Shown here in pieces: positions 1 through 10,707 of a stretch of DNA of 10,707 bases. Position 1 is the first letter of the stretch. The number at the start of each line of letters is the position of its first letter. The notes beneath the pieces are model-generated. The model made no database searches. It was not told where the DNA came from and saw only the letters and a program-made list of their open reading frames with translations. Source of the DNA: an uncultured Deinococcales bacterium. GTDB lineage: Bacteria; Deinococcota; Deinococci; Deinococcales; JAAFIG01. The stretch lies in contig CAXTTL010000168.1 in the NCBI GenBank assembly GCA_964247135.1, positions 1-10,707 on the forward strand, given 5' to 3'. Both the position numbers and the translations under genes were made by a program.

Positions 1-277
1 AGACGACCATGCCCGATAGGTGCGTTTTATGGTCAAGAAGGTTGGGGACAGGGAGACAAATTTTAATGTCGTTTGCCTGCAAGAGCGTAAAAATGTCGTC
101 GAGCAAACCAAAGTCAAATCTGTCTTCACTGGGTTGCAGCAGTGTCCACGAGAAAATATTGACGCTTAAAAAGTCGATGCCAGCCTCTTTAAACAAACGT
201 ACATCTTCGTCCCAGGTTGCCCTGTCCCACTGCTCAGGATTCCAGTCGCCACCGTAAGGAATCTTCCCTAAATTCAT
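1..277 (-). CDS. GH42 beta-galactosidase, N-terminal part (runs off the window; possibly interrupted near nt 52)
   Basis: Hand translation from ATG at 277: [75 protein letters not shown]. This matches the GH42 N-terminal signature YGGD(Y/W)NPEQW...ED...AG...IFSW..L(E/Q)P....(Y/F)DF..LD. The ATG overlaps the GH95 stop (ATGA, 274-277). Not in the ORF track because there is no stop in the window. Confidence 0.9.
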
Positions 278-2478
278 GCTGAACTCCTTAAGACTCGAGT
301 TTCACCAGCCTCGAGTTGCCAAGTTTGGTACAAACTTTGATAGCGAATCTCGAGGGTACAGGCTTTGGTTGACCTGATGCCAGCGGATGTCAGTTGATGA
401 TTTTGCCATGTGATGTCCACCGTCAGTCCACCTCGAGCACGAAGTCCAGAAACCCTGCCTGAATGCCATGCGCTTGGTAGGGCGGGCAGTAGGTGAATTT
501 CGGCATTGTGGCTTTGCAGCAGCATTTCTGCGATGCCTGCCGTGCCACCAAAATTCCCGTCAATCTGAAACGGCGGGTGGTTGTCGAACAAATTGGGCAG
601 CGTGGATTTTTGTAAGAGTTGTTGCAGCAACGCGTAAGCGCTGTCCGCATTCTCGAGTCTGGCAAAAAGATTGATGATCCAAGCCGCGCTCCAGCCCGTG
701 TGACCGCCGCCATGCTCGAGCCTGAGTTCTAAACTTTTTTGACAGGCAGTTTTGAGTTCTGAATTGTTGCCGAATAAATTTGCAGGGTACAAACCGTACA
801 AGTGCGAGACGTGCCGATGCCCTGGTTCAACCTCGAGAAATTCTTGTTCCCACTCGAGCAGTTGCCCTTTTGATCCAATCTTGAACGGCTCGAGTTTGGG
901 CAGCACGGCTTCAATTTTTTCTTGCAATTCAATCTCGAGCTTGAGGTGTTTGGTGGCTTTTAAGGTGCTTTCCAAAACATCTCGAGCAATCGACAAATCG
1001 ATGGTTGAGGATTGACTGATCGCACATTTGTTTTGTGCCTCATCAAAAAACTGATTTTCTGGACTGCTCGAGGGACTGAAACCAAGATTTCCATTTGGGG
1101 TTTCAATCAACCAATCGAGGATAAATTCGCTTGCGCCTTTCAGAATTGGCAGGGCGCGATGCTCGAGAAAGATTTCATCGCCACTAAACAACCAATGCTC
1201 AACCAATTGACGCGCCAACCACGCGCCAGCCAGCGGGAAAAATGCCCAACTGGCACTGCCATCGGTGGGTGTGGTTTTGCGCCACAGATCGGTGTTGTGA
1301 TGCGCCGTCCAACCCTGGCAACCGTAATGGATTTTCGCGGTGGCTTGTCCCGCCACACTTAAATCCTCAAGTAGCGCAAACAACGGTTCGCTGCATTCGG
1401 GCAGGGCGCAAGTTTCAGACAACCAGTAATTCATTTGGGTGTTGATGTTGATGGTGTAATCGCTGTTCCAGGGGGGTTGCAGGTACGGATTCCAGATGCC
1501 TTGAAGGTTTGCGGCTTGCCCACCTTTTCTTGAGCAGGCAATCAGCAAATAACGTCCAAATTGAAAGTACAACGCCTCGAGTGCCGTGTCTGTCGTGCCG
1601 TTTTGGTATTGCTCGAGTCGTGTGTCGGTGGGCAAATGCGAGCATTCGTCGGTGCCGAGTTCAAGCCAAACTCGAGAGAATAAATTTTGGTAATCGTTCA
1701 AGTGTCGCTCGAGCAACATCTGCCAACCGAGTTTGATGGCTTGTTCAAGTCTTGCCTGACAACGTTTTGCAGGTTCAGGGTTTTGTGGGTTTGGCATGGT
1801 TTGCCAGTTTTGGTAATTGCTGGCAGCCGTGAAAAAAACCGTGAACTCAGTTGCGCCGATAACCGTCAAACCATTTTCAGTCGAACTGAGTATGCCGTCG
1901 GTTTGCACGTGCAACAAACCATAAAAGCACAAACCATTGCCAATCTGACCCGCCAAAATCAACCTCGAGCTTTCAGCTTGCACCGAATGTTTGTGGAGTG
2001 ACTCGAGGCGGATGGTCATGGAGCTGCACGGTTGCGTAAAACGCCAACGGTAAACCAAAACCTGATCTGGGTAACTGATAAACGTTTCGCGTTTTTGAGT
2101 GCCAGACTCCACAGAAATCACCGCCGTCTCGAGGTTTAATTCACGGCGGTATGTTGCCGCCTCGAGATTTTCCTGACCCGAGATCAGCAACGTCCCGAGC
2201 GGTTGATACGCTTGTGATGAAAACCCCAACATGTTTGCCTCGAGCAACTGCTGCGCCGCAAACCACTGTCCCTCGCGCAGCAACGCCCGCACAGGCTCGA
2301 GAAAGTTTTTGGCGCTTGGGTTCAAATCTTGACTTGGCGCTCCAGTCCAAAGCGTACTTTCGTTCAGTTCAATCCGTTCGGCAAAAGCATCGCCGTAAAC
2401 CATGCCGCCCAACAAACCGTTGCCGATTGGCAAGGCTTGATTCCAACGCGTGGCGGGTTGCGAATACCAGAGTTTCAT
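274..2478 (-). CDS. Glycoside hydrolase family 95 (alpha-1,2-L-fucosidase / alpha-L-galactosidase family), 734 aa, no signal peptide
   Basis: GH95 motifs: [124 protein letters not shown] Shine-Dalgarno-like sequence just upstream. Confidence 0.95.
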
Positions 2479-2492
2479 GTGACCTCAGCTAG

Positions 2493-2528
2493 AAAACCTG
2501 CCATCTCGAGGAACAGATGACAGGTTTT
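2493..2528 (-). terminator. 14-bp stem-loop between the solute-binding protein and GH95 genes (partial terminator or mRNA stabiliser)
   Basis: On the mRNA strand: AAAACCUG-U-CAUCU / loop GUUCCUCG / AGAUG-G-CAGGUUUU, with one G.U pair. It begins 15 nt after the SBP stop and ends in UUUUCU. Confidence 0.7.
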
Positions 2529-2543
2529 GAATGGCGTTAGATT

Positions 2544-4208
2544 TTATTTCAAAATGTTCCAAAGCTTCAAACGATCCTGCACCAATTGCGTCTCGAGCTT
2601 CGAGTATTTGCCAATTTTGGTCTCGAGTTCGTCCACCAGCTTGTCGTAAATTTTGTCAAAATCGGCGGGTTTTGCCAAGATGGCTTGCGGGATGTACTTG
2701 CGCGTAATGTCTTGCTCGTCGTTCCAGAAAGCGTTCAGAGGGCTGTCCTGAGCGACCGGGATTGACCAGGCGGCAGCCCAAGGTTTTGGTTTGAACGATG
2801 ATGGTTTGGGCAGCAAATCGTTCCAGAATTTAACGTTGTAGGCAGCCAGCGCCGATTTTTCCTCATCCGAGTAATTGGCGGCAATTTGTTCTGGGTAATT
2901 GGTGGTGTAGTAATTGCCTGTTTTGTCTTTCACCCCGTCGCCGTAACGAATCGACCAGTTGTAACTGCCAATGCCGGTGGCTCGAGCAAAAACATTGTTG
3001 TTGTTGCTCTTTTCTTTTTGCACCGCTTCTGGAATCACGCGTTTACCGTTCACGATGTTGTACTGCTTGCCCTCAATGCCCCAGTTGTTGAGCACCTGTC
3101 CTTCTGGGCTGGCGAGGTAATCGAGGAATTTGATGGCGCGTACAGGGTCTTTGCAGGAGGTGGTGATGCCGATGCCCCAACCGCCCCTGAAGCCTGTGGG
3201 TTGGTTGTAGGCGGCTTTCATGTTTGGTTTGAGGGTCGCTCCAAATCGTCCGTAGGTTTGCTCAAATTTGCCGGCGGCTTTCAAGGAATTGACCGCCGTG
3301 CCGATTTCCCAATTGGCGTCGATCAAACCGACCACGCGTCCAGAGGCGATTTTTGCCAGGTACTGGTCGTATTTTTGGGTGAAGCTTTCTTTGTCGAGCA
3401 GCCCAATGTCGTTCATGTGGTTCAGCCACCTGAAGTACTCGCGTTCCTCCGGGCGCAAGAGGTGAACTTTGGCTTCAAAAGTGACGGGGTCGATGTAATA
3501 TTCGCCGTCGTCCGATGCGCCCGTCGCCCAGAAGCCAGGGTTGGTCACCGAAATCACAAAACGCCAATCGTCGGCGAGCAGGCTGAGTCCGACGGTTGGT
3601 TTGCCGTCGCTGGTGGTTGGGTGCTTTTTGACGTAGGTGGTGATGACTTTCTCGTAATCCTGCAAGCTTTTAATTTTGGGGTATTTTTGCTCTTTCAAGG
3701 CGCCGAGTTGCAGTTTGTACCAGGCGTCGGTGTCAAAATCGATTTGTCCAATCGAATCGAGGTTTGGAATAAAGTAAATTTTCGGGTCTTTGAGGGTAAA
3801 ACGCATCCGATCAAATTGTTTGCCAATCACTTTTTTGATGTTTGGCGCGTATTTGTTAATGAGGTCTGTCAGGTCAAGCATTGCGCCCGCATCGACCAAA
3901 ACGCCCTGTTGTCCTTTTGGCACAATAAAATCTGGGTATTGTCCAGAGGCGGCAATCAAATTGATTTTCGAGATCGGGTCGCCGACCGCAAATTCTGGTT
4001 TTAAGGTGACACCCGTTTTTTGGGTTAAAAACTTACCAACGTCGTCCTGCATGTTGTTCCAGTTGGCATTCGGGTCTGAGGCGAAAGCGGTAAAGGTGAT
4101 TGGCGTATTCGCGCCGCTCTGCGCCAATGCCATGATCGAGGTGATGCCAACTGTGGCAATGCAACCAACGGCGATCAGACGAGTCCAACGGTTCTTAGGG
4201 GTTTTCAT
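2544..4208 (-). CDS. Carbohydrate ABC transporter solute-binding protein (large, LplA-like oligosaccharide-binding type), 554 aa
   Basis: Strong SD (AAGGAGG). N-terminal basic and hydrophobic signal peptide ending ALA-Q. Motifs KTGVTL, LIAASGQYPD, LDLTDLI.KYAPNI, GLLDKESFT, DPVRAIKFLDYLAS.EGQ.L..WGIEG..Y. Lies downstream of two permeases. Confidence 0.92.
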   Translation of the reverse strand: MKTPKNRWTRLIAVGCIATVGITSIMALAQSGANTPITFTAFASDPNANWNNMQDDVGKFLTQKTGVTLKPEFAVGDPISKINLIAASGQYPDFIVPKGQQGVLVDAGAMLDLTDLINKYAPNIKKVIGKQFDRMRFTLKDPKIYFIPNLDSIGQIDFDTDAWYKLQLGALKEQKYPKIKSLQDYEKVITTYVKKHPTTSDGKPTVGLSLLADDWRFVISVTNPGFWATGASDDGEYYIDPVTFEAKVHLLRPEEREYFRWLNHMNDIGLLDKESFTQKYDQYLAKIASGRVVGLIDANWEIGTAVNSLKAAGKFEQTYGRFGATLKPNMKAAYNQPTGFRGGWGIGITTSCKDPVRAIKFLDYLASPEGQVLNNWGIEGKQYNIVNGKRVIPEAVQKEKSNNNNVFARATGIGSYNWSIRYGDGVKDKTGNYYTTNYPEQIAANYSDEEKSALAAYNVKFWNDLLPKPSSFKPKPWAAAWSIPVAQDSPLNAFWNDEQDITRKYIPQAILAKPADFDKIYDKLVDELETKIGKYSKLETQLVQDRLKLWNILK

Positions 4209-4256
4209 ACTGCCTCCTTGTAGACAACCGAACGAATAACAAAAAAACCGAATTGA

Positions 4257-5156
4257 CTAACCTTTTACCGAACCCAGCGTCATGCCTTTGACAAAGTAAC
4301 GTTGCAAGAATGGGTAAACGACCAGTATTGGCGTGATGGTCACGATGGTGATTGCCATTTTGATCGAATCGGGGCTGACTTGCTGCATTTGCTTGGCAAT
4401 ATCATTGCCGTAAGCGGCGTCGCGCCCGATTTGGGTGGATTGTAAAATTTTCATCAGTTCAAATTGCAGTGTGCTTAAGCTTTGGTTGCTGCCGTTGAAT
4501 AAGTACGTGTCGAACCAAGAATTCCATTGCCCAACCGCCACAAACAAAGCAACGGTTGCCAGAACGGGGGCACAGAGCGGCAAAATCACCCGCCAGTAAA
4601 TGGTAAAATCGTTGGCGCCGTCCATCTTTGCCGATTCTTGCAACTCGTAGGGCAAGCCATCGATATAAGAACGGATCATAAAAATATTAAAGGCATTGAC
4701 CATGCCTGGGATAATGTAAACCAAAAATGAATTCATAAAATGTAAATCTCGCATCAGTAAAAAACCAGGGATCAAACCTCCAGAAATAAACAGTGTGATT
4801 GCCAAAAAACGTGATAAAAAAGCCCGCCCTTGAAAATCTCTGCGACTGAGCACAAATGCCACCATTGAACAGGCGGCAACGCTTAAAAACGTTCCAGAGA
4901 CCGTGCGCAAAACTGAGATCAAAAAAGCTTGCGGGATATTGCTAAACCTAAAAATAGTTTGGAAGTTCTCGAGCGTCCAAGCTCGAGGGAAAATGGTAAT
5001 ACCACCGCGAACGGTATCGTTTGAATTGTTAAACGCGATGGCGAGGACATTTAAAAATGGGTAAATAGTCACAATTAAAACGATTGTGAGCAGAAAAACA
5101 TTAAAGGCATAAAAAAAATCGAATTGTTTTTTGGTTTTCACAGGACTGGTTTTCAT
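4257..5156 (-). CDS. Carbohydrate ABC transporter permease (MalG/LplC-like), about 299 aa
   Basis: Multiple hydrophobic segments, EAA loop LPYELQESAKMDGA, then P.LATVALF.AVGQWNSWFD and C-terminal YPFLQRYFVKGMTLGSVKG. Start moved to ATG 5156 (MKTSPVK), which overlaps the upstream stop (ATGA). Confidence 0.92.
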   Translation of the reverse strand: MKTSPVKTKKQFDFFYAFNVFLLTIVLIVTIYPFLNVLAIAFNNSNDTVRGGITIFPRAWTLENFQTIFRFSNIPQAFLISVLRTVSGTFLSVAACSMVAFVLSRRDFQGRAFLSRFLAITLFISGGLIPGFLLMRDLHFMNSFLVYIIPGMVNAFNIFMIRSYIDGLPYELQESAKMDGANDFTIYWRVILPLCAPVLATVALFVAVGQWNSWFDTYLFNGSNQSLSTLQFELMKILQSTQIGRDAAYGNDIAKQMQQVSPDSIKMAITIVTITPILVVYPFLQRYFVKGMTLGSVKG

Positions 5157-6124
5157 AGGACACTCTCGCCTGTTCGCCATTTGAAAATGGCATTTGTGCC
5201 AAAGAGCAAGATAATACCGACCACCGAATTGATGACGCTGACGGCTGTACCAAACGAGAAGTTGTTTGCCCCTAAACCATAGTTTAAAGCGTACAAGTCA
5301 AGCACCTGCGAGGCATCTTTGACCATTGGATTGCCCAAGAGCAGTTGTTTTTCAAAACCAATCGCAATCAGATGCCCGATGGCTAAGACCAATAAGATCA
5401 TGATGACCCGACTGATGCCAGGCAGCGTAATGTGCCACATCAATTGCCAACGCCCCGCCCCGTCCACTCGAGCGGCATCGTATTGTTCGGTGTCGATGGC
5501 GGTCATGGCGGCAAGGTAGATGATGGTATTCCAACCGAGTTCTTTCCAGAGGTCTGAAACGGTGACGATGCCCCAGAAGTACTCGTTTTTTGCCATAAAT
5601 TGCACGGGTTTTTGCCCAAAAAGTTGCAGCAATTGATTGATCGCACCGTCGTCGGTGGAAAGCATTTTGTAAACGATGCCTGCGACCACCACCCAAGAGA
5701 CAAAATGTGGCAAGTATGAAACGGTTTGGACAAAACGCTTGAAAATACCGTTGCTGAGTTCGTTCAAGAGCAGCGCAAACGCAATCGGAACGGTAAAACC
5801 GACCACCAAACCCAGGCAACTCATGCCCAGCGTGTTCCAAAGCGCATTGTAAAAACGATCATCTTGAAACAACAGCACAAACTGCTGAAAACCCACCCAT
5901 TCCTGTGCCCAGAACGGCTTGCCGATGCGGTACTTTTGGAATGCCATGATCCAGCCCCAAATCGGCACGTAATTAAAAACCAGCACCATCAGGGCAAAAG
6001 GCACGGACATCAGGTAGAGGTAACGCTGATCGAGGAATGTTTTCCAGAAGCGAACGCGGGTGCTCTGTCGCGGCAGGCTGGTCTCGAGTGAGGATTTGGT
6101 TTGGTTGCTGGTTGCGCTATTCAT
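5153..6124 (-). CDS. Carbohydrate ABC transporter permease (MalF/LplB-like), about 323 aa
   Basis: Motifs FKRFVQTVSYLPHFVSWVVV, WKELGWNTIIYLAA and EAA loop YDAARVDGAGRWQLMWHITLP. Start moved to ATG 6124 (MNSATS), preceded by an AGGTG SD. The ORF-track start at 6199 is a TTG/ATG call that abuts the promoter region. Confidence 0.92.
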   Translation of the reverse strand: MNSATSNQTKSSLETSLPRQSTRVRFWKTFLDQRYLYLMSVPFALMVLVFNYVPIWGWIMAFQKYRIGKPFWAQEWVGFQQFVLLFQDDRFYNALWNTLGMSCLGLVVGFTVPIAFALLLNELSNGIFKRFVQTVSYLPHFVSWVVVAGIVYKMLSTDDGAINQLLQLFGQKPVQFMAKNEYFWGIVTVSDLWKELGWNTIIYLAAMTAIDTEQYDAARVDGAGRWQLMWHITLPGISRVIMILLVLAIGHLIAIGFEKQLLLGNPMVKDASQVLDLYALNYGLGANNFSFGTAVSVINSVVGIILLFGTNAIFKWRTGESVL

Positions 6125-6193
6125 CGATTCACCTGAAAACATGAGTGCTGCGAAAGTAAAGCCTCGAGTGCTGGGTGGTCGGCGTGAGCCAGT

Positions 6194-6223
6194 TTGCATT
6201 TGAATGTAGGTTTATCCTACAAT
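6194..6223 (+). promoter_or_regulatory. Candidate sigma70-type promoter for the lacI-family gene
   Basis: TTGCAT (6194-6199), an 18-nt spacer, then TACAAT (6218-6223). The -10 box overlaps the operator palindrome. Confidence 0.5.
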
Positions 6224-6243
6224 CGAATCGATTCGATTGTCAA
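6214..6243 (-). promoter_or_regulatory. Sigma70-type promoter for the ABC/GH95/GH42 operon
   Basis: Minus strand reads TTGACA (6243-6238, perfect -35), an 18-nt spacer, then TAGGAT (6219-6214). Confidence 0.7.
6219..6240. promoter_or_regulatory. Putative LacI-family operator, perfect 22-bp palindrome ACAATCGAATCGATTCGATTGT
   Basis: Exact inverted repeat with central CG and A-rich flanks, typical of LacI/GalR sites. Located between the divergent ABC operon and the lacI-family gene. Confidence 0.85.
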
Positions 6244-6301
6244 CCGTTTTCTTTTCGCAACACCAAGCCCTCGGGCTGAGGTAAACTCCTGGAAAGGCAT
6301 T

Positions 6302-7297
6302 ATGGCAACCATCAAAGACGTCGCGGCACGTGCAGGAGTTTCACAAAGTACAGTTCATTACGCCCTCAACGGCAAGCGATCCATTTCTGATTCGGTCAGG
6401 CAACGGGTCATTGCCGTGGTCGCCGAACTCGATTACAGCGCCAGCGCCCTCGGGCAACGCCTGCGCCAGAGCCGCAGTTACAGCATCGGCATGATTGCAC
6501 CGCAACTGCCGACCTGGGACGCCTCGAGCATGGAAATGCTGATGTCCACCAGCGCCACCGCCAGCGCCGCCCATCACAACATGGCTATTTTTGTCGGACA
6601 AAGCGCCGAGCAAACCGTGCAATTGCTGCGCAACCAAACCGTGGACGGCTTGATCCTGATCGAAACCACCCACAACGACCCGCGCATCGAGGCTCTACGT
6701 GAGGGCAAATACCCGTTTGTGCTGCTCGGACGAACCGAAAACTTGACTGGACTGACCTCAGTCGATTTTGATTTTGAACAAGCCGTGTTTGTGGCGCTCG
6801 AGAATTTGGTCAAGCTTGGGCACAGGCGCATCGGTTTGATCGCCCCAGAGCCATCGACGCTCGAGAACAGGTACTATGTGCAACGCGGCATCGAACGCGC
6901 TCAAGCCACATATGATTTTGTTGCCACCAGCGTTTTTGAAGGACAGCGTCTTAATGTCGAAGATGGTTACCGAGTCACCGAAAAACTCTTGACGCTCGAG
7001 CCGAACGTGACCGCCATTTTTGCCGCAGGTCACAGCCACGTTGGCGTGCTGCGTTCCTTGTACAGCCACAACATTCGGGTGCCCGACGATTGCTCGGTCA
7101 TCGGCATCACCACCGCGCAAGTGGCGGAGTGGAGCATCCCCAAATTGACCTCGGTGGACATTCCACTGTTTGACATGAGCCAAACCGCGACCAAATTGCT
7201 CTTGAAAAAACTGGCAGGCGAAGAAATTTGCGAACAAATTCTGGCACCCGCCAAACTGGTGGCTCGAGAGAGCACCGCAGCGCCCAAAAAACCGTAG
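6302..7297 (+). CDS. LacI/GalR family transcriptional regulator, about 331 aa
   Basis: N-terminal HTH MATIKDVAARAGVSQSTVHYALNG. Sugar-binding domain motifs VDGLIL, L.KLGHRRIGLI, IRVPDDCSVIG, PKLTSVD and LVARESTA. GGAAAGG SD precedes ATG 6302. Confidence 0.95.
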   Translation: MATIKDVAARAGVSQSTVHYALNGKRSISDSVRQRVIAVVAELDYSASALGQRLRQSRSYSIGMIAPQLPTWDASSMEMLMSTSATASAAHHNMAIFVGQSAEQTVQLLRNQTVDGLILIETTHNDPRIEALREGKYPFVLLGRTENLTGLTSVDFDFEQAVFVALENLVKLGHRRIGLIAPEPSTLENRYYVQRGIERAQATYDFVATSVFEGQRLNVEDGYRVTEKLLTLEPNVTAIFAAGHSHVGVLRSLYSHNIRVPDDCSVIGITTAQVAEWSIPKLTSVDIPLFDMSQTATKLLLKKLAGEEICEQILAPAKLVARESTAAPKKP

Positions 7298-7321
7298 GGC
7301 GCATGGCTATGCGCCCCTACG
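7293..7321. repeat. GTAG-type REP-like palindrome between convergent lacI and GH31 genes
   Basis: CGTAGGGCGCAT-GGCT-ATGCGCCCCTACG: 12-bp stem with a 1-nt bulge, bounded by GTAG...CTAC. The minus strand reads GTAGGGGCGCATAGCCATGCGCCCTAC. Only one copy is in the window, so repeat status is inferred from resemblance. Confidence 0.65.
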
Positions 7322-7333
7322 TCACAAGAATTT

Positions 7334-9601
7334 TTAAATTTTCTCGAGGGTGATTTCTTGATGACCGCCCTCGATTGTTTGGTCAATGTTCGTTCCAGAA
7401 ACCTTGAATTGAAAGGCTCGAGCCGTGCCTGAACGCGCCAGCGAAATCGTGGTTCCTCGGCGCGTTGCCGTGACCGAAAAATCAGTGTCGCCCGATAAGG
7501 TCGGCACAACCGCGCTGGCACTCGAGCCATCCTCGAGGGCGTACAAGACCAAACTTGGTGTTGCGCCGTAATCGTAATCGGGTCGCCCATCGCTCGAGCC
7601 TAAAACCAGCAGGGTGTTAGGACGCACCAACAACGGCACGCTTAAGAAATCGTGTTTTTCGGTAATACAACGCCCACCAGTGACTGTTTTTCCCGTCAAA
7701 AATTCGGTCCAAGTGCCTGTCGGCACGTAATACGTGACCGTATCATCGCTGCGAAAAACAGGTGCGACCAGCAGCGAATCGCCCAACATGTACTGCCGAT
7801 CCAGCGCGTCACACATCGGGTCGCTCGGAAACTCGAGCATCATGGCTCGCATCATGGGAATGCCCGTGTTGTGGGCTTCGACGGCTTTTTGAAACAAGTA
7901 CGGCATTAAACGGTACTTTAATTTCGTGAAATGCCTGAGCACATCCACCGATTCATCATCGAACAACCACGGCACACGGTAAGACGTGCTGCCATGCAAG
8001 CGGCTGTGCGAACTGAGCAAGCCAAAGGCAATCCAACGCTTGTAGACCTCGAGCGGTGGCATTCCCTCAAAACCGCCAATGTCGTGCGACCAAAAGCCAA
8101 AACCCGACAGGCACAGCGACAAACCGCCGCGCAAACTTTCAGCCATGCTCTCAAAACTCGAGTCGCAATCGCCGCCCCAATGCACCGGAAATTGCTGCGA
8201 ACCTGAGGTGGCACTTCGGGCGAAAACCGTGGCGGAATTGCTATGGGCTTGCAGGGTGTTGAAGACAATTTGGTTGTACAAAAACGAGTAATAATTGTGC
8301 ATTCGTTCAGGGTCGCTTTCGTCGAACCATTGCACGTCCTGGGTCGGGATGCGTTCGCCAAAATCGGTTTTAAAACTGTCCACGCCCATGTCCATCAGAC
8401 GCGTTAAATGTGAGGCGTACCAGGTGCAGGCGTCGGGGTTGGTGAAATCGACAATCGCCATGCCAGGTTGCCACAAGTCCCACTGCCAAACACTGCCGTC
8501 CTTGCGTTTTAACAAGTATCCTCGAGCTTGACCCTCCGCAAACAATTTGGAGCGCTGGGCGATGTATGGGTTGATCCAAACGCAGACTTTTAGACCACGG
8601 TCATGCAGCCTTGCCAACATGCCCTTGGGGTCAGGAAAAACCGCTGGGTCCCATTCAAAATCGCACCAATGAAACGCCCGCATCCAAAAACAATCGAAAT
8701 GAAAGACTGAAAGCGGCAAATCTCGAGTCTGCATTCCGTCCAGAAAGCCATTCACCGTCGCCTCGTCGTAATTGGTGGTGAACGAGGTGGACAACCACAA
8801 GCCAAACGTCCAAGCCGGCGGCAGTGCGGGACGACCCGTCAACACTGTGTACTTCTCGAGAATCTCTTTTGGCGTTGCCCCGTAAATCAGAAAATACTCG
8901 AGCGATTCGCCAGCCACACTAAACTGAACCCGAGAGACCTTCTCGGTGGCGACCTCGAACTCGACGCGTTCGGGTTGATTGACGAACACGCCGTAGCCGC
9001 AATTGGTCAGGTAAAACGGGATGTTCTTGTACGCCTGATCGCTGCCCGTACCGCCATCTCGATTCCAAATCTCGACACTTTGTCCGTTCTTGACAAACGC
9101 CGTGAAGCGCTCTCCCAAACCGTAAACGTTCTCGCCAACACCGAGCGTCAGTTGTTCAACCATAAAGTTTCCAGTGTGTTCGCTGCGCATCAAACCCATC
9201 CCTCGAGACGGACTGCGCGTGAGCACCTGAGCGTTCGCCACAAACTCCACAGACCAGTTCTGACGGTTCACCCGAGCCGTCAGCGCCCCAGAGGTCAAGC
9301 TCGCCATTTCAGGCGCAATGGAATGCTCGAGTGAGACACTCGAATCCGCCACCTCAAAATGCGGACCCAACACCGCAACGCCCGTGAAATGCTCGAGCCG
9401 CACCCGAATCACATCCGCCAGCGGCGAGGACAATTTGACTGCCAAGATTGGACCCTCGAGCGTGTCGCCGCGATGCCGAATGTGGCGTGTTGGGGCGCAC
9501 AACTCGAGCGTGCCGTTTGTGAAACTGGCATCAAAACCCTCGGCAGGGTACGCGGCACGCACCCCTGGCTGCATCATCCAAGCACCATCGGTAAATTTCA
9601 T
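7334..9601 (-). CDS. yicI: GH31 alpha-xylosidase (YicI type), about 755 aa, no signal peptide
   Basis: Typical YicI start MKFTDG.W. Motifs YGLGERFTAFVKNGQ, QAYKNIPFYLTN, FGLWLSTSFTTNYDE, VFHFDCFWM, nucleophile motif FKTDFGERIP, acid/base motif HWGGDC, FWSHDIGGFE and SSHSRLHGS. Start moved to ATG 9601. Confidence 0.95.
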   Translation of the reverse strand: MKFTDGAWMMQPGVRAAYPAEGFDASFTNGTLELCAPTRHIRHRGDTLEGPILAVKLSSPLADVIRVRLEHFTGVAVLGPHFEVADSSVSLEHSIAPEMASLTSGALTARVNRQNWSVEFVANAQVLTRSPSRGMGLMRSEHTGNFMVEQLTLGVGENVYGLGERFTAFVKNGQSVEIWNRDGGTGSDQAYKNIPFYLTNCGYGVFVNQPERVEFEVATEKVSRVQFSVAGESLEYFLIYGATPKEILEKYTVLTGRPALPPAWTFGLWLSTSFTTNYDEATVNGFLDGMQTRDLPLSVFHFDCFWMRAFHWCDFEWDPAVFPDPKGMLARLHDRGLKVCVWINPYIAQRSKLFAEGQARGYLLKRKDGSVWQWDLWQPGMAIVDFTNPDACTWYASHLTRLMDMGVDSFKTDFGERIPTQDVQWFDESDPERMHNYYSFLYNQIVFNTLQAHSNSATVFARSATSGSQQFPVHWGGDCDSSFESMAESLRGGLSLCLSGFGFWSHDIGGFEGMPPLEVYKRWIAFGLLSSHSRLHGSTSYRVPWLFDDESVDVLRHFTKLKYRLMPYLFQKAVEAHNTGIPMMRAMMLEFPSDPMCDALDRQYMLGDSLLVAPVFRSDDTVTYYVPTGTWTEFLTGKTVTGGRCITEKHDFLSVPLLVRPNTLLVLGSSDGRPDYDYGATPSLVLYALEDGSSASAVVPTLSGDTDFSVTATRRGTTISLARSGTARAFQFKVSGTNIDQTIEGGHQEITLEKI

Positions 9602-9628
9602 CGTAGCGCGAGTATAACCACAAGTTTT

Positions 9629-9652
9629 TCGAACGTGTTTGTCGAACACGTT
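9629..9652. promoter_or_regulatory. Candidate operator upstream of the alpha-xylosidase gene
   Basis: AACGTGTT-N5-AACACGTT inverted repeat (9632-9652). It is also a 13-bp-period tandem TCGAAC-NN-GTT, immediately upstream of a TATACT -10-like box (minus strand, 9616-9611). Confidence 0.45.
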
Positions 9653-9889
9653 ACAGCCTCAAAGATTGGGTCGAACAAAATGCCCAACCAACTCGGGTTT
9701 TAGAAAATAATCCTCGAGTTTAAATACTGTTTCCAAACCAATCAATTCATTCGGTCAGGATTTCTATTCACAAATCCGAACCGGTTTCTCGCCCCGAAAA
9801 ATTTCAGCCAAAAACCGTGAGAAACCAAAATTCAATACGCTACTTTGCCCATGCCCGCCCAACGGCACTCGAGTTAAGCTAAAGTATTC

Positions 9890-10707
9890 ATGATTGAAGT
9901 CGCCAACCTCGAGAAGCATTACACGGTGAACGAAAAAGAGCCTGGCATTGCGGGCAGTTTAAGGTCGTTTTTTAGCCGCAAAACCAAAACCGTCAAAGCC
10001 GTCGATGGCGTCAGTTTTAAGATTGGTGCAGGTGAAATGGTGGGTTTTTTGGGCGCGAACGGCGCGGGCAAAACCACCACCCTGAAAATGCTGGCGGGCT
10101 TGCTGCACCCGACGGGCGGCATGGCGAAAGTCGCGGGCTTCACGCCGTTTGAACGACGCTCGAGTTTTCTGAAAACCATCACGCTGGTGATGGGGCAAAA
10201 GCAGCAGCTCTTGTGGGATTTGCCCGCCTCGGACAGTTTTTTGGTCAACCAAGCGATTTACGAAATCCCCGACCTCGAGTACCGCGCCACGATGGGCGAG
10301 TTCAGCGAGTTGCTCGATTTGGACGGCATCCTCAAAAAACAGGTGCGCAAACTTTCCCTTGGTGAACGCATGAAATGCGAACTCGCGGCGGCATTGTTGC
10401 ACCGTCCGAAGGTTTTATTTCTGGACGAACCGACCATTGGTCTTGATGTCAACATGCAAGTGCGAATTCGGGAATTTGTCGCGGCGTACAACCAACGGTT
10501 TAACGCCACCGTCATTCTGACCAGCCACTACATGGCAGACGTGACGGCGCTCTGCAAACGCATCGTCGTGGTGGACAAAGGGCATATCATTTTTGACGGC
10601 GACCTTTCGGCTTTAATTGAACGCTCGAGTCCCGCCAAAATCGTCAAACTCGAGCTTTCCAAAGTTGTTTCTCGAGACATTCTGGAATCTTACGCGCCGG
10701 TCAAAAG
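9890..10707 (+). CDS. ABC-2-type transporter ATP-binding protein (COG4586-like), truncated by the window end
   Basis: Hand translation from ATG 9890: MIEVANLEKHYTVNEKEPGIAGSLRSFF...KAVDGVSF..., Walker A GANGAGKTT, VMGQKQQLLWDLP, signature LSLGERMK, Walker B LFLDEPTIGLD and H-loop LTSHYM. Open to the edge and absent from the ORF track. Confidence 0.93.
   Translation, partial: MIEVANLEKHYTVNEKEPGIAGSLRSFFSRKTKTVKAVDGVSFKIGAGEMVGFLGANGAGKTTTLKMLAGLLHPTGGMAKVAGFTPFERRSSFLKTITLVMGQKQQLLWDLPASDSFLVNQAIYEIPDLEYRATMGEFSELLDLDGILKKQVRKLSLGERMKCELAAALLHRPKVLFLDEPTIGLDVNMQVRIREFVAAYNQRFNATVILTSHYMADVTALCKRIVVVDKGHIIFDGDLSALIERSSPAKIVKLELSKVVSRDILESYAPVK

Follow-up and report, generated by a model that had tools for sequence, protein, structure and literature searches.

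CTCGAG as a lineage-wide, highly iterated palindrome in Deinococcota

We analysed the hexamer CTCGAG in a 10,707-bp contig of an uncultured Deinococcales bacterium (CAXTTL010000168.1; this whole stretch, at its full length, is henceforth referred to as the window) and in the genome that holds it, G000, a metagenome-assembled genome (MAG) that is 84% complete (386 contigs, of which the window is C168; 5,091,702 bp; 52.7% guanine plus cytosine, GC). We are close to certain that CTCGAG is a lineage-wide, highly iterated palindrome under a word-specific fixation bias at the nucleic-acid level, and this bias is not explained by composition, codons, the tetramer TCGA or a restriction system. A preliminary description of the window had counted about 62 sites by hand and had likened the word to the cyanobacterial palindrome HIP1 (highly iterated palindrome 1). 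The exact count is indeed 62 (5.8 per kb; the first at 294-299, the last at 10671-10676), while 200 dinucleotide-preserving shuffles of the window contained on average 1.45 sites (standard deviation 1.14, maximum 5) and none reached 62. The likeness to HIP1, with a different word, also holds up: the sites occur genome-wide, in all codon phases and in non-coding DNA, and are conserved beyond codon constraint. We found no published account of CTCGAG hyper-abundance in Deinococcota in literature searches.

The enrichment might have been confined to the window or a by-product of a general TCGA bias, as the preliminary description had allowed; neither is the case. G000 contains 33,925 copies of CTCGAG (one per 150 bp, or ~6,660 per Mb), which makes it the top 6-mer of the genome, the next ranks being taken by words that overlap it. 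The observed-to-expected ratio was 24.8 under an order-0 model, 35, 14 and 3.4 under Markov models of order 1, 2 and 3, and 1.24 under the maximal order of 4, the last value being uninformative because 33,925 of the 38,652 CTCGA pentamers belong to CTCGAG itself. With regard to TCGA, 62% of all tetramers (33,925 of 54,610) lie inside the word, while TTCGAA (131 sites) and GTCGAC (121 sites) fall about ten-fold short of expectation and ATCGAT shows no bias.

We found the word to be sharply delimited. Its 8-bp palindromic extensions all fell below the prediction from independent flanks (GCTCGAGC 0.84, ACTCGAGT 0.92, TCTCGAGA 0.70 and CCTCGAGG 0.44), meaning that the word is exactly 6 bp long. 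Variants with one mismatch occurred at 0.5-1.7 times expectation, so that the depletion of such variants considered in the preliminary description was not seen, apart from CTAGAG (0.08), which is in line with a general avoidance of CTAG. Transition-type variants were higher than the others (CTTGAG and CTCAAG at 1.17 times), as expected of decay products of an abundant parent word. Several other short words are rare in G000: GAGCTC (i.e., CTCGAG reversed) is missing from all 5.09 Mb, GGCC occurs 380 times (0.02 times expectation), and 21 of the 64 palindromic hexamers occur at less than 0.06 times expectation, including GGGCCC (1 copy), CGGCCG (3), AGGCCT (4), CGTACG (5) and GGATCC (7).

To separate the word from the proteins it helps to encode, we used a gene set produced with a crude open reading frame (ORF) caller (4,514 ORFs, 86% of G000). 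Shuffling synonymous codons within each gene, which preserves every protein and each gene's codon usage, left 4,022 ± 63 coding sites (10 replicates) compared with 28,531 observed, a 7.1-fold excess; this null is conservative because the codon usage that it preserves is already inflated by the word. Shuffling codon order left 1,702 sites (a 16.8-fold excess). The excess over the synonymous null was present in each of the three codon phases (17,385 observed vs. 3,107, 4,544 vs. 333, and 6,602 vs. 581), and site density was 7.5 per kb in non-coding DNA vs. 6.5 per kb in coding DNA. Amino-acid content alone, as the preliminary description had argued, and codon usage are thus not sufficient to account for the sites, given that a 7.1-fold excess survives a shuffle in which both are kept. 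In terms of spelling, 76.6% of all Leu-Glu dipeptides in G000 (17,385 of 22,696) are written CTCGAG, compared with 11% expected, and CTC makes up just 15% of the leucine codons that are not followed by glutamate. In the other two phases, the site spells 4,544 of 10,442 [SPTA]-Arg-[VADEG] combinations (44%) and 6,602 of 14,338 x-Ser-[Arg/Ser] combinations (46%).

We then compared G000 with its congeners (handles G001 and G005 below), which are 82-90% identical in DNA. In the window, 47 of the 62 sites occupy the same alignment column in G005, at an overall identity of 85.9%. The alignment between G000 and G005 as a whole comprised 296 kb in 109 segments at 85.2% identity, and we ranked all hexamers with at least 100 occurrences in it (n = 1,030) by their retention. 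CTCGAG ranked first, with 1,562 of 1,976 copies (79.0%) retained in G005, whereas all hexamers together were retained at 45.9% (median 48.6%, 95th percentile 61.5%). At positions where the amino acids were conserved, CTC was kept in 943 of 1,010 cases (93.4%) before GAG vs. 641 of 1,097 (58.4%) otherwise, and GAG in 968 of 1,010 cases (95.8%) after CTC vs. 796 of 1,089 (73.1%) otherwise. Spellings of Leu-Glu other than CTCGAG were retained at 0-53%, and 62 of the 205 such spellings in G000 are CTCGAG in G005. The sites are therefore held against synonymous drift, and their conservation works through synonymous positions. When the window was aligned three ways between G000, G005 and G001 (all ~85% apart), 36 sites were common to all three, 12 were singletons and 13 doubletons, suggesting that site gain and loss are roughly balanced. 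Per site, the bias is weak (ln(24.8), i.e., ~3 in scaled units), dependent on neighbouring sites, and at or near equilibrium.

The same pattern extends across the family of G000 (f1; 19 genomes including G000, in 5 genera) and, in graded form, across the phylum (a sample of 221 genomes, 5 of them from f1). All 18 other family genomes, covering all 5 genera, carried 4.3-6.8 sites per kb, and GAGCTC was present in 3-25 copies in 15 of them and in 114, 161 and 568 copies in the other three. In the phylum sample, whose related members do not count as independent and whose genome sizes are rounded values, CTCGAG was depleted in genus g7 (87 genomes; 26-1,010 sites per genome) and about as common as GAGCTC in genus g9 (30 genomes), while genera g13, g14 and g15 (26 genomes, most of them 99% complete) carried 1.4-3.5 sites per kb and 2.8-43 times fewer copies of GAGCTC. 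Genus g35 of family f3 reached 3.6 sites per kb, and family f2 ranged from 0.3 to 2.6 per kb. The preliminary description had linked CTCGAG richness to some Deinococcota (Meiothermus-like) genomes, and the link to Deinococcota fits the several fully sequenced genera of the phylum with 1.4-3.5 sites per kb. Separately, GAGCTC was found to be rare in some f2 genomes that are merely moderately rich in CTCGAG. The closest structures in the PDB to two conserved proteins of G000 (EF-G, 1,120 bits vs. 950 for the next organism; GroEL, 873 vs. 747) are those of Thermus thermophilus, in support of a place in Deinococcota.

These results leave almost no credence for the explanation that the word is a passive by-product, whether of base composition, of codon usage or amino-acid content, of a TCGA bias or of a purge that removes other palindromes. 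The maximal-order Markov ratio of just 1.24 is consistent with it, as is the fact that codon usage by itself raises both CTCGAG and GAGCTC to ~1 per kb in relatives of high GC (e.g., in g9, and in viral contigs in which the two words are ~1:1). Nevertheless, it is contradicted by both shuffles and by a non-coding density that equals or exceeds the coding one, by the share of TCGA found inside the word, the depletion of TTCGAA and GTCGAC and the 0 copies of GAGCTC, and by a first rank in conservation that comes with a context-specific synonymous constraint. In addition, among 80 loci from many other phyla that encode homologues (55-65% identity) of a GH31 glycoside hydrolase of the window, none shows CTCGAG richness; as a guide to the taxonomy of G000, these loci were uninformative.

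The sites of the window and the genes that carry them are as follows (coordinates, strand, feature; gene identities are from Pfam):

294..10676, no strand: the set of 62 CTCGAG copies (1.45 expected; 47 of 62 in the same alignment column in G005)
274..2478, minus strand: GH95 glycoside hydrolase gene, the richest gene of the window (23 sites, 10.4 per kb)
2505..2510, no strand: intergenic CTCGAG in the spacer between the GH95 and solute-binding protein genes (site count)
2544..6199, minus strand: site-poor block of a solute-binding protein gene and two ABC (ATP-binding cassette) permease genes (8 sites in 3.66 kb)
2987..4967, no strand: site-free stretch (1,987 bp between consecutive site starts)
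6194..7297, plus strand: LacI-family regulator gene (5 sites; 3 of 3 Leu-Glu spelled CTCGAG)
7334..9649, minus strand: GH31 glycoside hydrolase gene (17 sites), an example of the word altering a protein
9713..9873, no strand: two intergenic CTCGAG copies, 9713-9718 and 9868-9873, in the spacer between the GH31 and ABC ATPase genes (site count)
9890..10705, plus strand: ABC transporter ATPase gene that runs off the contig (6 sites)

Of these sites, 37 are in phase 0 (CTC GAG), 14 in phase 1 and 8 in phase 2, genes on both strands carry them, and 3 are intergenic. This agrees with the preliminary description as regards phases, strands and the intergenic copies at 2505, 9713 and 9868; a fourth copy, at 6163, is not securely intergenic, since it falls within the ORF 5153-6199 when this is read from its first ATG, and its status hangs on the true start codon. 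Together, these genes (for GH95, the solute-binding protein, both ABC permeases, the LacI regulator, GH31 and the ABC ATPase) make up a cluster for sugar utilisation. The part from GH95 to GH31 (window 53-9663) has DNA-level orthologues in G005 and G001 only, among the 18 family genomes, and in most of the family DNA matches to the window are limited to the ABC ATPase part. The cluster is thus accessory, yet it has full site density over most of its length. In the GH95 protein, CTCGAG spells 17 of 22 Leu-Glu.

The left contig edge (window 1-48) belongs to a short multi-copy element, with a 36-nt core that has 46 copies in G000 (allowing up to 4 substitutions) and matches in most family genomes searched; it folds no better than its shuffles (z = -0.44). 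It is probably half of a repetitive extragenic palindromic (REP)-like repeat at which the assembly broke. We considered whether this element is tied to CTCGAG and rejected the idea, given 0.26 sites within 40 bp of the 46 copies vs. ~0.74 expected.

The effect of the word is not limited to synonymous choices. Leu-Glu is the most over-represented dipeptide in G000 (2.40 times, rank 1) and Ser-Ser ranks fourth (1.64 times). In the GH31 protein, Leu-Glu occurs 1.30 times per 100 amino acids in the window and 1.17 times in the G005 orthologue, compared with a mean of 0.51 and a maximum of 0.94 in 76 homologues from other phyla; moreover, at 8 of its 17 site positions the encoded residues are found in none of the 76 homologues, and at just 1 of 17 in the majority. 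The word has therefore pulled protein sequence towards Leu-Glu and Ser-Ser. We also asked whether highly expressed genes avoid the word and found that they do not, at least in two cases: the EF-G gene has 4.2 sites per kb and all 6 of its 6 Leu-Glu spelled CTCGAG, and the GroEL gene has a density of 5.3 per kb, with 9 of its 10 Leu-Glu spelled in this way. Short motifs found nothing for RpoB, RpoC, EF-Tu or RecA in the 84% complete G000.

Neighbouring sites in G000 are separated by gaps (n = 33,539) that average 148 bp and have a median of 108 bp; the largest measures 2,644 bp, and 16 exceed 1,500 bp. A site-to-site distance of exactly 6 was never seen, because GAGCTC would arise. The variance-to-mean ratio of site counts rose with bin size (0.82, 0.91, 1.12, 1.41 and 1.89 for bins of 300 bp, 500 bp, 1 kb, 2 kb and 5 kb, respectively; control words gave 1.04-1.15 at 1 kb). 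Regular spacing, at which the gap histogram hinted, was accordingly rejected, the dispersion being one of short-range exclusion and mild clumping at 2-5 kb, and no periodicity of CTCGAG was found in G000 up to 600 bp besides the codon period. The neighbour effect is visible in spelling: Leu-Glu is written as the site in 16% of cases when the nearest other site is less than 9 bp away, in 46% at 9-15 bp, in 73% at 21-30 bp and in ~85% at 90-180 bp, and then in at most 33% when it is more than 500 bp away, a distance that marks site-poor regions. Close site pairs are avoided inside genes; non-coding DNA also shows exclusion below ~15 bp, and pairs 15-25 bp apart are relatively favoured there. Genes show a flat profile of ~6-7 per kb along their length. 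Upstream of starts the density is 7.2-9.2 per kb, and a peak of 13.7 per kb is reached within 20 bp after stop codons.

Two explanations that place the function of the word inside the cell bear directly on these patterns. According to the first, an abundant, dimeric nucleoid-associated protein binds CTCGAG, and the density of the word is a set-point for the compaction or domain organisation of the chromosome. This would fit a constraint that acts on DNA, with similar densities in coding, non-coding and upstream DNA and a flat profile along genes, and it would fit the suppression of neighbours within ~15-30 bp in both coding and non-coding DNA, which is the scale of a protein footprint; the highly expressed EF-G and GroEL genes are not spared either (6 of 6 and 9 of 10 Leu-Glu). 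A nucleoid role has also been proposed for HIP1 on the basis of its conservation and periodicity, as far as the consulted portion of Xu et al. 2018 (PMC5861425) describes it. Nonetheless, no protein stands out as a candidate, there is no periodicity up to 600 bp except that of codons, and such a role alone leaves the copies in a phage and in CRISPR spacers (see below) and the slow gain of sites in imported genes unaccounted for, so we regard it as an unlikely explanation of the whole. According to the second, the self-complementary CUCGAG acts in RNA, by influencing how transcripts fold, how stable they are or how RNases recognise them. Each copy is able to pair with any other, and both the peak after stop codons and the favoured non-coding pairs 15-25 bp apart fit terminator hairpins. 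We consider this explanation very improbable, however, given that the word is as dense or denser 20-100 bp upstream of starts (7.2-9.2 per kb) and in non-coding DNA overall, that all three phases are used and that close pairs within genes are avoided. As the word is palindromic, strand is unusable as a test of a role in RNA.

Site density also varies with the apparent origin of genes. It rises with gene GC, from 2.1 per kb below 42% to as much as 7.3 per kb above 58%, and the ten most site-poor long genes scanned comprised low-GC, imported-looking genes as well as solute-binding protein genes of normal GC (3 of 10). Three low-GC (26-40%) genes are nearly free of the word (C4:51606-53234, C70:14265-16157 and C8:22650-25763); their contents include a reverse transcriptase fused to a trypsin-like protease, an AAA_16 ATPase and a weak STAND-NTPase match. 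A Wzy-like ligase gene is also among the low-GC, site-poor genes. These genes look imported, and three of them resemble imported defence genes.

The site-poor solute-binding protein genes of normal GC form a separate group (C1:85083-86447 with 0 sites, C78:7786-9228 with 1, C18:28886-30250 with 1 and window 2544-4208 with 3). The stretch 2987-4967 of the window, one of the 16 genome gaps longer than 1,500 bp, spans such a gene and the adjoining permease gene, and across window 2506-6082 G005 is poorer than G000, with one site alone (2981). We considered that this stretch might be young DNA in which Leu-Glu had yet to be converted, and rejected this: the solute-binding protein and the two permeases (2544-6199) contain 2, 1 and 1 Leu-Glu, all 4 of which are already spelled CTCGAG, and it is Leu-Glu itself that is scarce. 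With sparse Leu-Glu dipeptides that are all spelled as the site, synonymous opportunities are saturated and gains at the protein level are the slow step; the spelling of Leu-Glu in EF-G and GroEL agrees with this.

The preliminary description had proposed that a methyltransferase specific for CTCGAG or TCGA, coupled to biased repair, creates the sites. We looked for such enzymes through known Pfam families and orthologues; most of the assemblies are fragmented (in the family, all but the single-contig G011), the specificities of the remaining methylases are not known, and a methylase of an unrecognised family could escape, which applies to the negative results that follow. G000 encodes ~12 candidate DNA methylases (two MmeI-like, a helicase fusion, HsdM, five PF01555, two C5 and one D12), all but one with genome-typical site density. 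We traced six small ones, three over 18 family genomes and three over the five best genomes (one per genus). The first three had orthologues (at least 62% identity) in 3 of the 18 genomes each, some of them with stop codons; for the other three, the number of the five best genomes with an orthologue was 0, 2 and 2. None of the six, nor any C5 methylase, was found in G008 (91% complete), and no PF01555 methylase was found in G011. Viewed as Pfam families, PF07669 was present in 18 of 19 family genomes and PF01555 in 17 of 19, with a C5 methylase homologue in 16 of 18. Two further candidates were rejected: frames of ~500 amino acids with weak PF07669 matches, taken as a possible conserved methylase of PaeR7I size, proved to be HsdM-like and mutually 23-41% identical bar a few close pairs, and the D12 methylase, although matched in 5 of 5 genomes, represents at least three unrelated lineages. 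Judging by sequence comparison, therefore, no methylase orthologue group was found to span the five genera, and the methylase link of cyanobacterial HIPs was not found here. As a side observation, a 466-aa PF01555-containing protein (C4:28577-29977) has orthologues with in-frame stops in two family genomes (G005:C76:182942-184300 and G012:C72:42092-43402), and these stops are a sign of decay of a methylase-like gene within the family.

XhoI-type enzymes gave a similar result. The search for XhoI/PaeR7I-like enzymes suggested in the preliminary description found no XhoI-family endonuclease (PF04555) in G000. Within the phylum, the search showed itself able to find this family by matches in 4 of the 221 genomes (three genomes of f4 and, with a pseudogene, one of f2), and the family was absent from 5 of 5 f1 genomes, from all 26 of g13-g15, from g35 and from all 30 of g9. 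An adjacent PF01555 methylase accompanies the endonuclease in G021, G084 and G139; in G021 it is the convergent neighbour, with a length of 340 amino acids. An initial candidate, a TaqI-like partner methylase, proved wrong for this phylum, where the partner is a PF01555 enzyme. The best match to the G021 partner in G000 was just 25-28% identical, and none of the 5 f1 genomes had a match at E ≤ 1e-25. Homologues of the partner methylase (59-73% identity) were found in 30 of 221 genomes, including 22 of the 30 in g9, 5 of the 10 in f4 and a single one of the 19 in g13, whose copy has a stop codon; the genomes of f1 (5), g14 (4) and g15 (3) had none. The g9 homologues, 62-66% identical (e.g., G064:C1:388430-389230), are apparently orphans, in genomes without a CTCGAG bias.

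With these data the repair-drive proposal can be weighed. It holds that a methylase marks CTCGAG or TCGA and that methyl-directed or very-short-patch-type repair makes sites, or that selection keeps a dense mark; this is Elhai's model for HIP1, as set out in excerpts of PMC4390886. The same excerpts state that every HIP-bearing cyanobacterial genome has a methylase for that HIP, and f1 genomes are rich in methylases (~12 candidates in G000). Part of one report further describes CTCGAG and TCGA as methylated motifs common to one hot-spring host-phage group, although the group is not tied there to Deinococcota (10.64898/2026.06.24.734251), and part of another describes a haloarchaeon with a 5-methylcytosine CTCGAG methylase, which has just 560 sites (PMC8112702). 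What stands against the proposal in our data is the lack of a family-wide orthologue group (with G008 devoid of all six small methylases and G011 of PF01555), the rarity of the XhoI-family endonuclease (4 of 221, and 0 of 5 in f1), partner-methylase homologues that occur mainly in the unbiased g9, and one-mismatch variants that are not depleted (0.5-1.7 times). The proposal of the preliminary description hence found no support, and we think it improbable that methylation drives the word in this family.

We next consider mobile DNA. G000 contains an array of clustered regularly interspaced short palindromic repeats (CRISPR) at a contig end (C221:6962-8177) with 17 repeats, of which the 37-nt repeat itself contains CTCGAG, and one duplicated spacer; 3 of the 15 unique spacers have an internal CTCGAG, i.e., ~6-7 per kb on ~525 nt. 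Among viral contigs, at least 120 loci had three CTCGAG close together, and in most of the high-GC ones the ratio of CTCGAG to GAGCTC was ~1:1. One contig among the matches listed, L248 (IMGVR_UViG_3300044492_000233; 14,747 bp, 69% GC), has 49 CTCGAG, 2 GAGCTC and 162 GGCC. Its genes for a tape-measure protein, the large terminase and the major head protein mark it as a tailed phage. L248 bears the twin word signature of moderately rich host lineages, without their avoidance of GGCC. Another contig, L324 (57 CTCGAG, 0 GAGCTC), was not counted as a phage, since 4 of its 5 ORFs had no PHROG match and the fifth matched a family of unknown function. The HK97-type capsid family PF05065 was found in 0 of 19 family genomes, including the single-contig G011, with matches in 3 of 14 control genomes, and no multi-copy or insertion-sequence DNA (repeats of at least 500 bp at 90% identity) was assembled in G000.

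Our preferred reading, to which we assign a probability of roughly 40%, is that CTCGAG is a tag of kin DNA that is read in DNA uptake or recombination. We favour it because the methylase route is unsupported and because the peak after stop codons, the scarcity of the word in imports, the graded lineages, the hints from a phage and from spacers, and an existing proposal for HIP1 all fit. Specifically, a protein would read the bare word directly and not via a dedicated methylase, and this reader would probably be a dimer, given the dyad symmetry of the word. The reader would act on DNA exchange, such that word-bearing DNA is preferentially taken up, recombined or spared, and the word would accumulate by molecular drive plus selection, an argument made before for uptake sequences in Neisseria and in Haemophilus and, recently, for HIP1. 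The mobile elements of the lineage may then come to carry the word too. HIP1 itself enhances transformation and has been proposed as an uptake sequence, according to the part of PMC13756078 available to us.

Several observations weigh against this reading. No protein stands out as the reader; the conservation data cannot tell selection from biased gene conversion; and a 6-bp palindrome at 6.7 per kb is unlike known uptake words, so that discrimination of foreign DNA could only be quantitative at best. The competence genes do little to help: of the 19 family genomes, 18 have ComEC, and DprA is present in 4 of 5, but each is also found in 10 of 14 control genomes, which means that, as the two are near-universal, their presence does no more than fail to refute uptake. 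The evidence from mobile DNA is thin (15 spacers, one confirmed phage with no host assignment, and L324 unconfirmed), the sites are not regularly spaced, and their short-range exclusion is explicable by sequence constraints or hairpin avoidance. Finally, the gene set comes from a crude ORF caller, and binning of an 84% complete MAG may have dropped atypical DNA.

A more specific form of the kin-tag reading, which we put forward tentatively and think rather unlikely as it stands, is that CTCGAG is a methylation-independent identity mark, by which a dedicated dimeric protein separates kin from foreign DNA in uptake, recombination or defence. If true, such a mark would be written once per 150 bp in genes, spacers, CRISPR repeats and phages, at the price of thousands of changed amino acids; it would constitute a new class of genome-wide self-recognition and may point to the mechanism of HIP1.

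Whatever the mechanism, the word has several implications. For three decades, highly iterated palindromes have defied explanation, and the apparent absence of a cognate methylase separates CTCGAG from the link to methylation that dominates thinking about HIP1. The graded series within one phylum, from unbiased genomes to 6.8 sites per kb, suits the correlation of a trait with gene content, and if the 99% complete genomes with 2-3.5 sites per kb come from cultured strains, methylome, uptake and pull-down work would be feasible. In practical terms, XhoI would cut such DNA into ~150 bp fragments, the word is usable as a marker of residence time in composition-based binning and in the detection of horizontal transfer, and the enrichment of Leu-Glu and Ser-Ser in these proteins is not to be read as adaptation.

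Among known systems, XhoI/PaeR7I-type restriction-modification is alike in that its recognition site is the same CTCGAG. It differs in that few genomes of the phylum (4 of 221) have the endonuclease, and none of these belongs to the richest groups sampled (f1, g13-g15 and g35); moreover, restriction systems normally deplete their own site or leave it neutral. Very-short-patch repair in Escherichia coli, which skews CCWGG vs. CTWGG, is a precedent for a mutational drive that creates sites. However, that skew is well under two-fold and depletes the deamination product, whereas the excess of CTCGAG is 25-fold and CTTGAG and CTCAAG, at 1.17 times, are not depleted.

The DNA uptake sequences (DUS) of Neisseriaceae and the uptake signal sequences (USS) of Pasteurellaceae are non-palindromic words of 9-12 bp that occur at ~1 per kb, in genes and spacers and as inverted pairs behind genes, and that are scarce in imports and have graded variants among relatives. 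CTCGAG resembles them in being genome-wide, in its scarcity in imported-looking genes, in its graded lineages and in the presence of competence genes; it is unlike them in being a 6-bp palindrome at 6.7 per kb in which 8-bp extensions are disfavoured. The post-stop peak of 13.7 per kb and the relatively favoured non-coding pairs 15-25 bp apart may be a counterpart of the inverted pairs. As far as is known, no member of Deinococcota shows an uptake bias, and Thermus takes up DNA irrespective of its sequence.

The closest parallel is found in HIP1 (GCGATCGC) and the alternate HIPs of cyanobacteria, which are likewise short palindromes over-represented tens of fold, in all frames and in non-coding DNA, across a lineage. 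HIP1 sites, too, are conserved between genomes, with codons inside the word more conserved than the same codons outside it, as reported in the part of Xu et al. 2018 (PMC5861425) that we drew on; their Figure 5 applies to HIP1 the comparison of codons made above for CTC and GAG. The differences concern the organisms (cyanobacteria vs. Deinococcota), the word (8 bp for HIP1 vs. 6 bp for CTCGAG, which has 67% GC) and the methylase, which the excerpts of PMC4390886 place in every HIP genome and which was not found here. They also concern density. The alternate HIPs have at least 75% GC and occur at 1,000-2,000 per Mb (Elhai 2015, PMC4390886, in those excerpts), and the part of Xu et al. 2018 (PMC5861425) gives HIP1 a density of at most 1 per 350 nt and a distribution that is periodic at 10-90 kb; CTCGAG, at ~6,660 per Mb, is denser and has a measurable effect on the proteome (Leu-Glu at 2.4 times). 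According to the same part of Xu et al. 2018 (PMC5861425), highly iterated palindromes had previously been seen only in cyanobacteria. CTCGAG adds a second case that is independent of the first, comes from a different phylum and is denser than any seen before.

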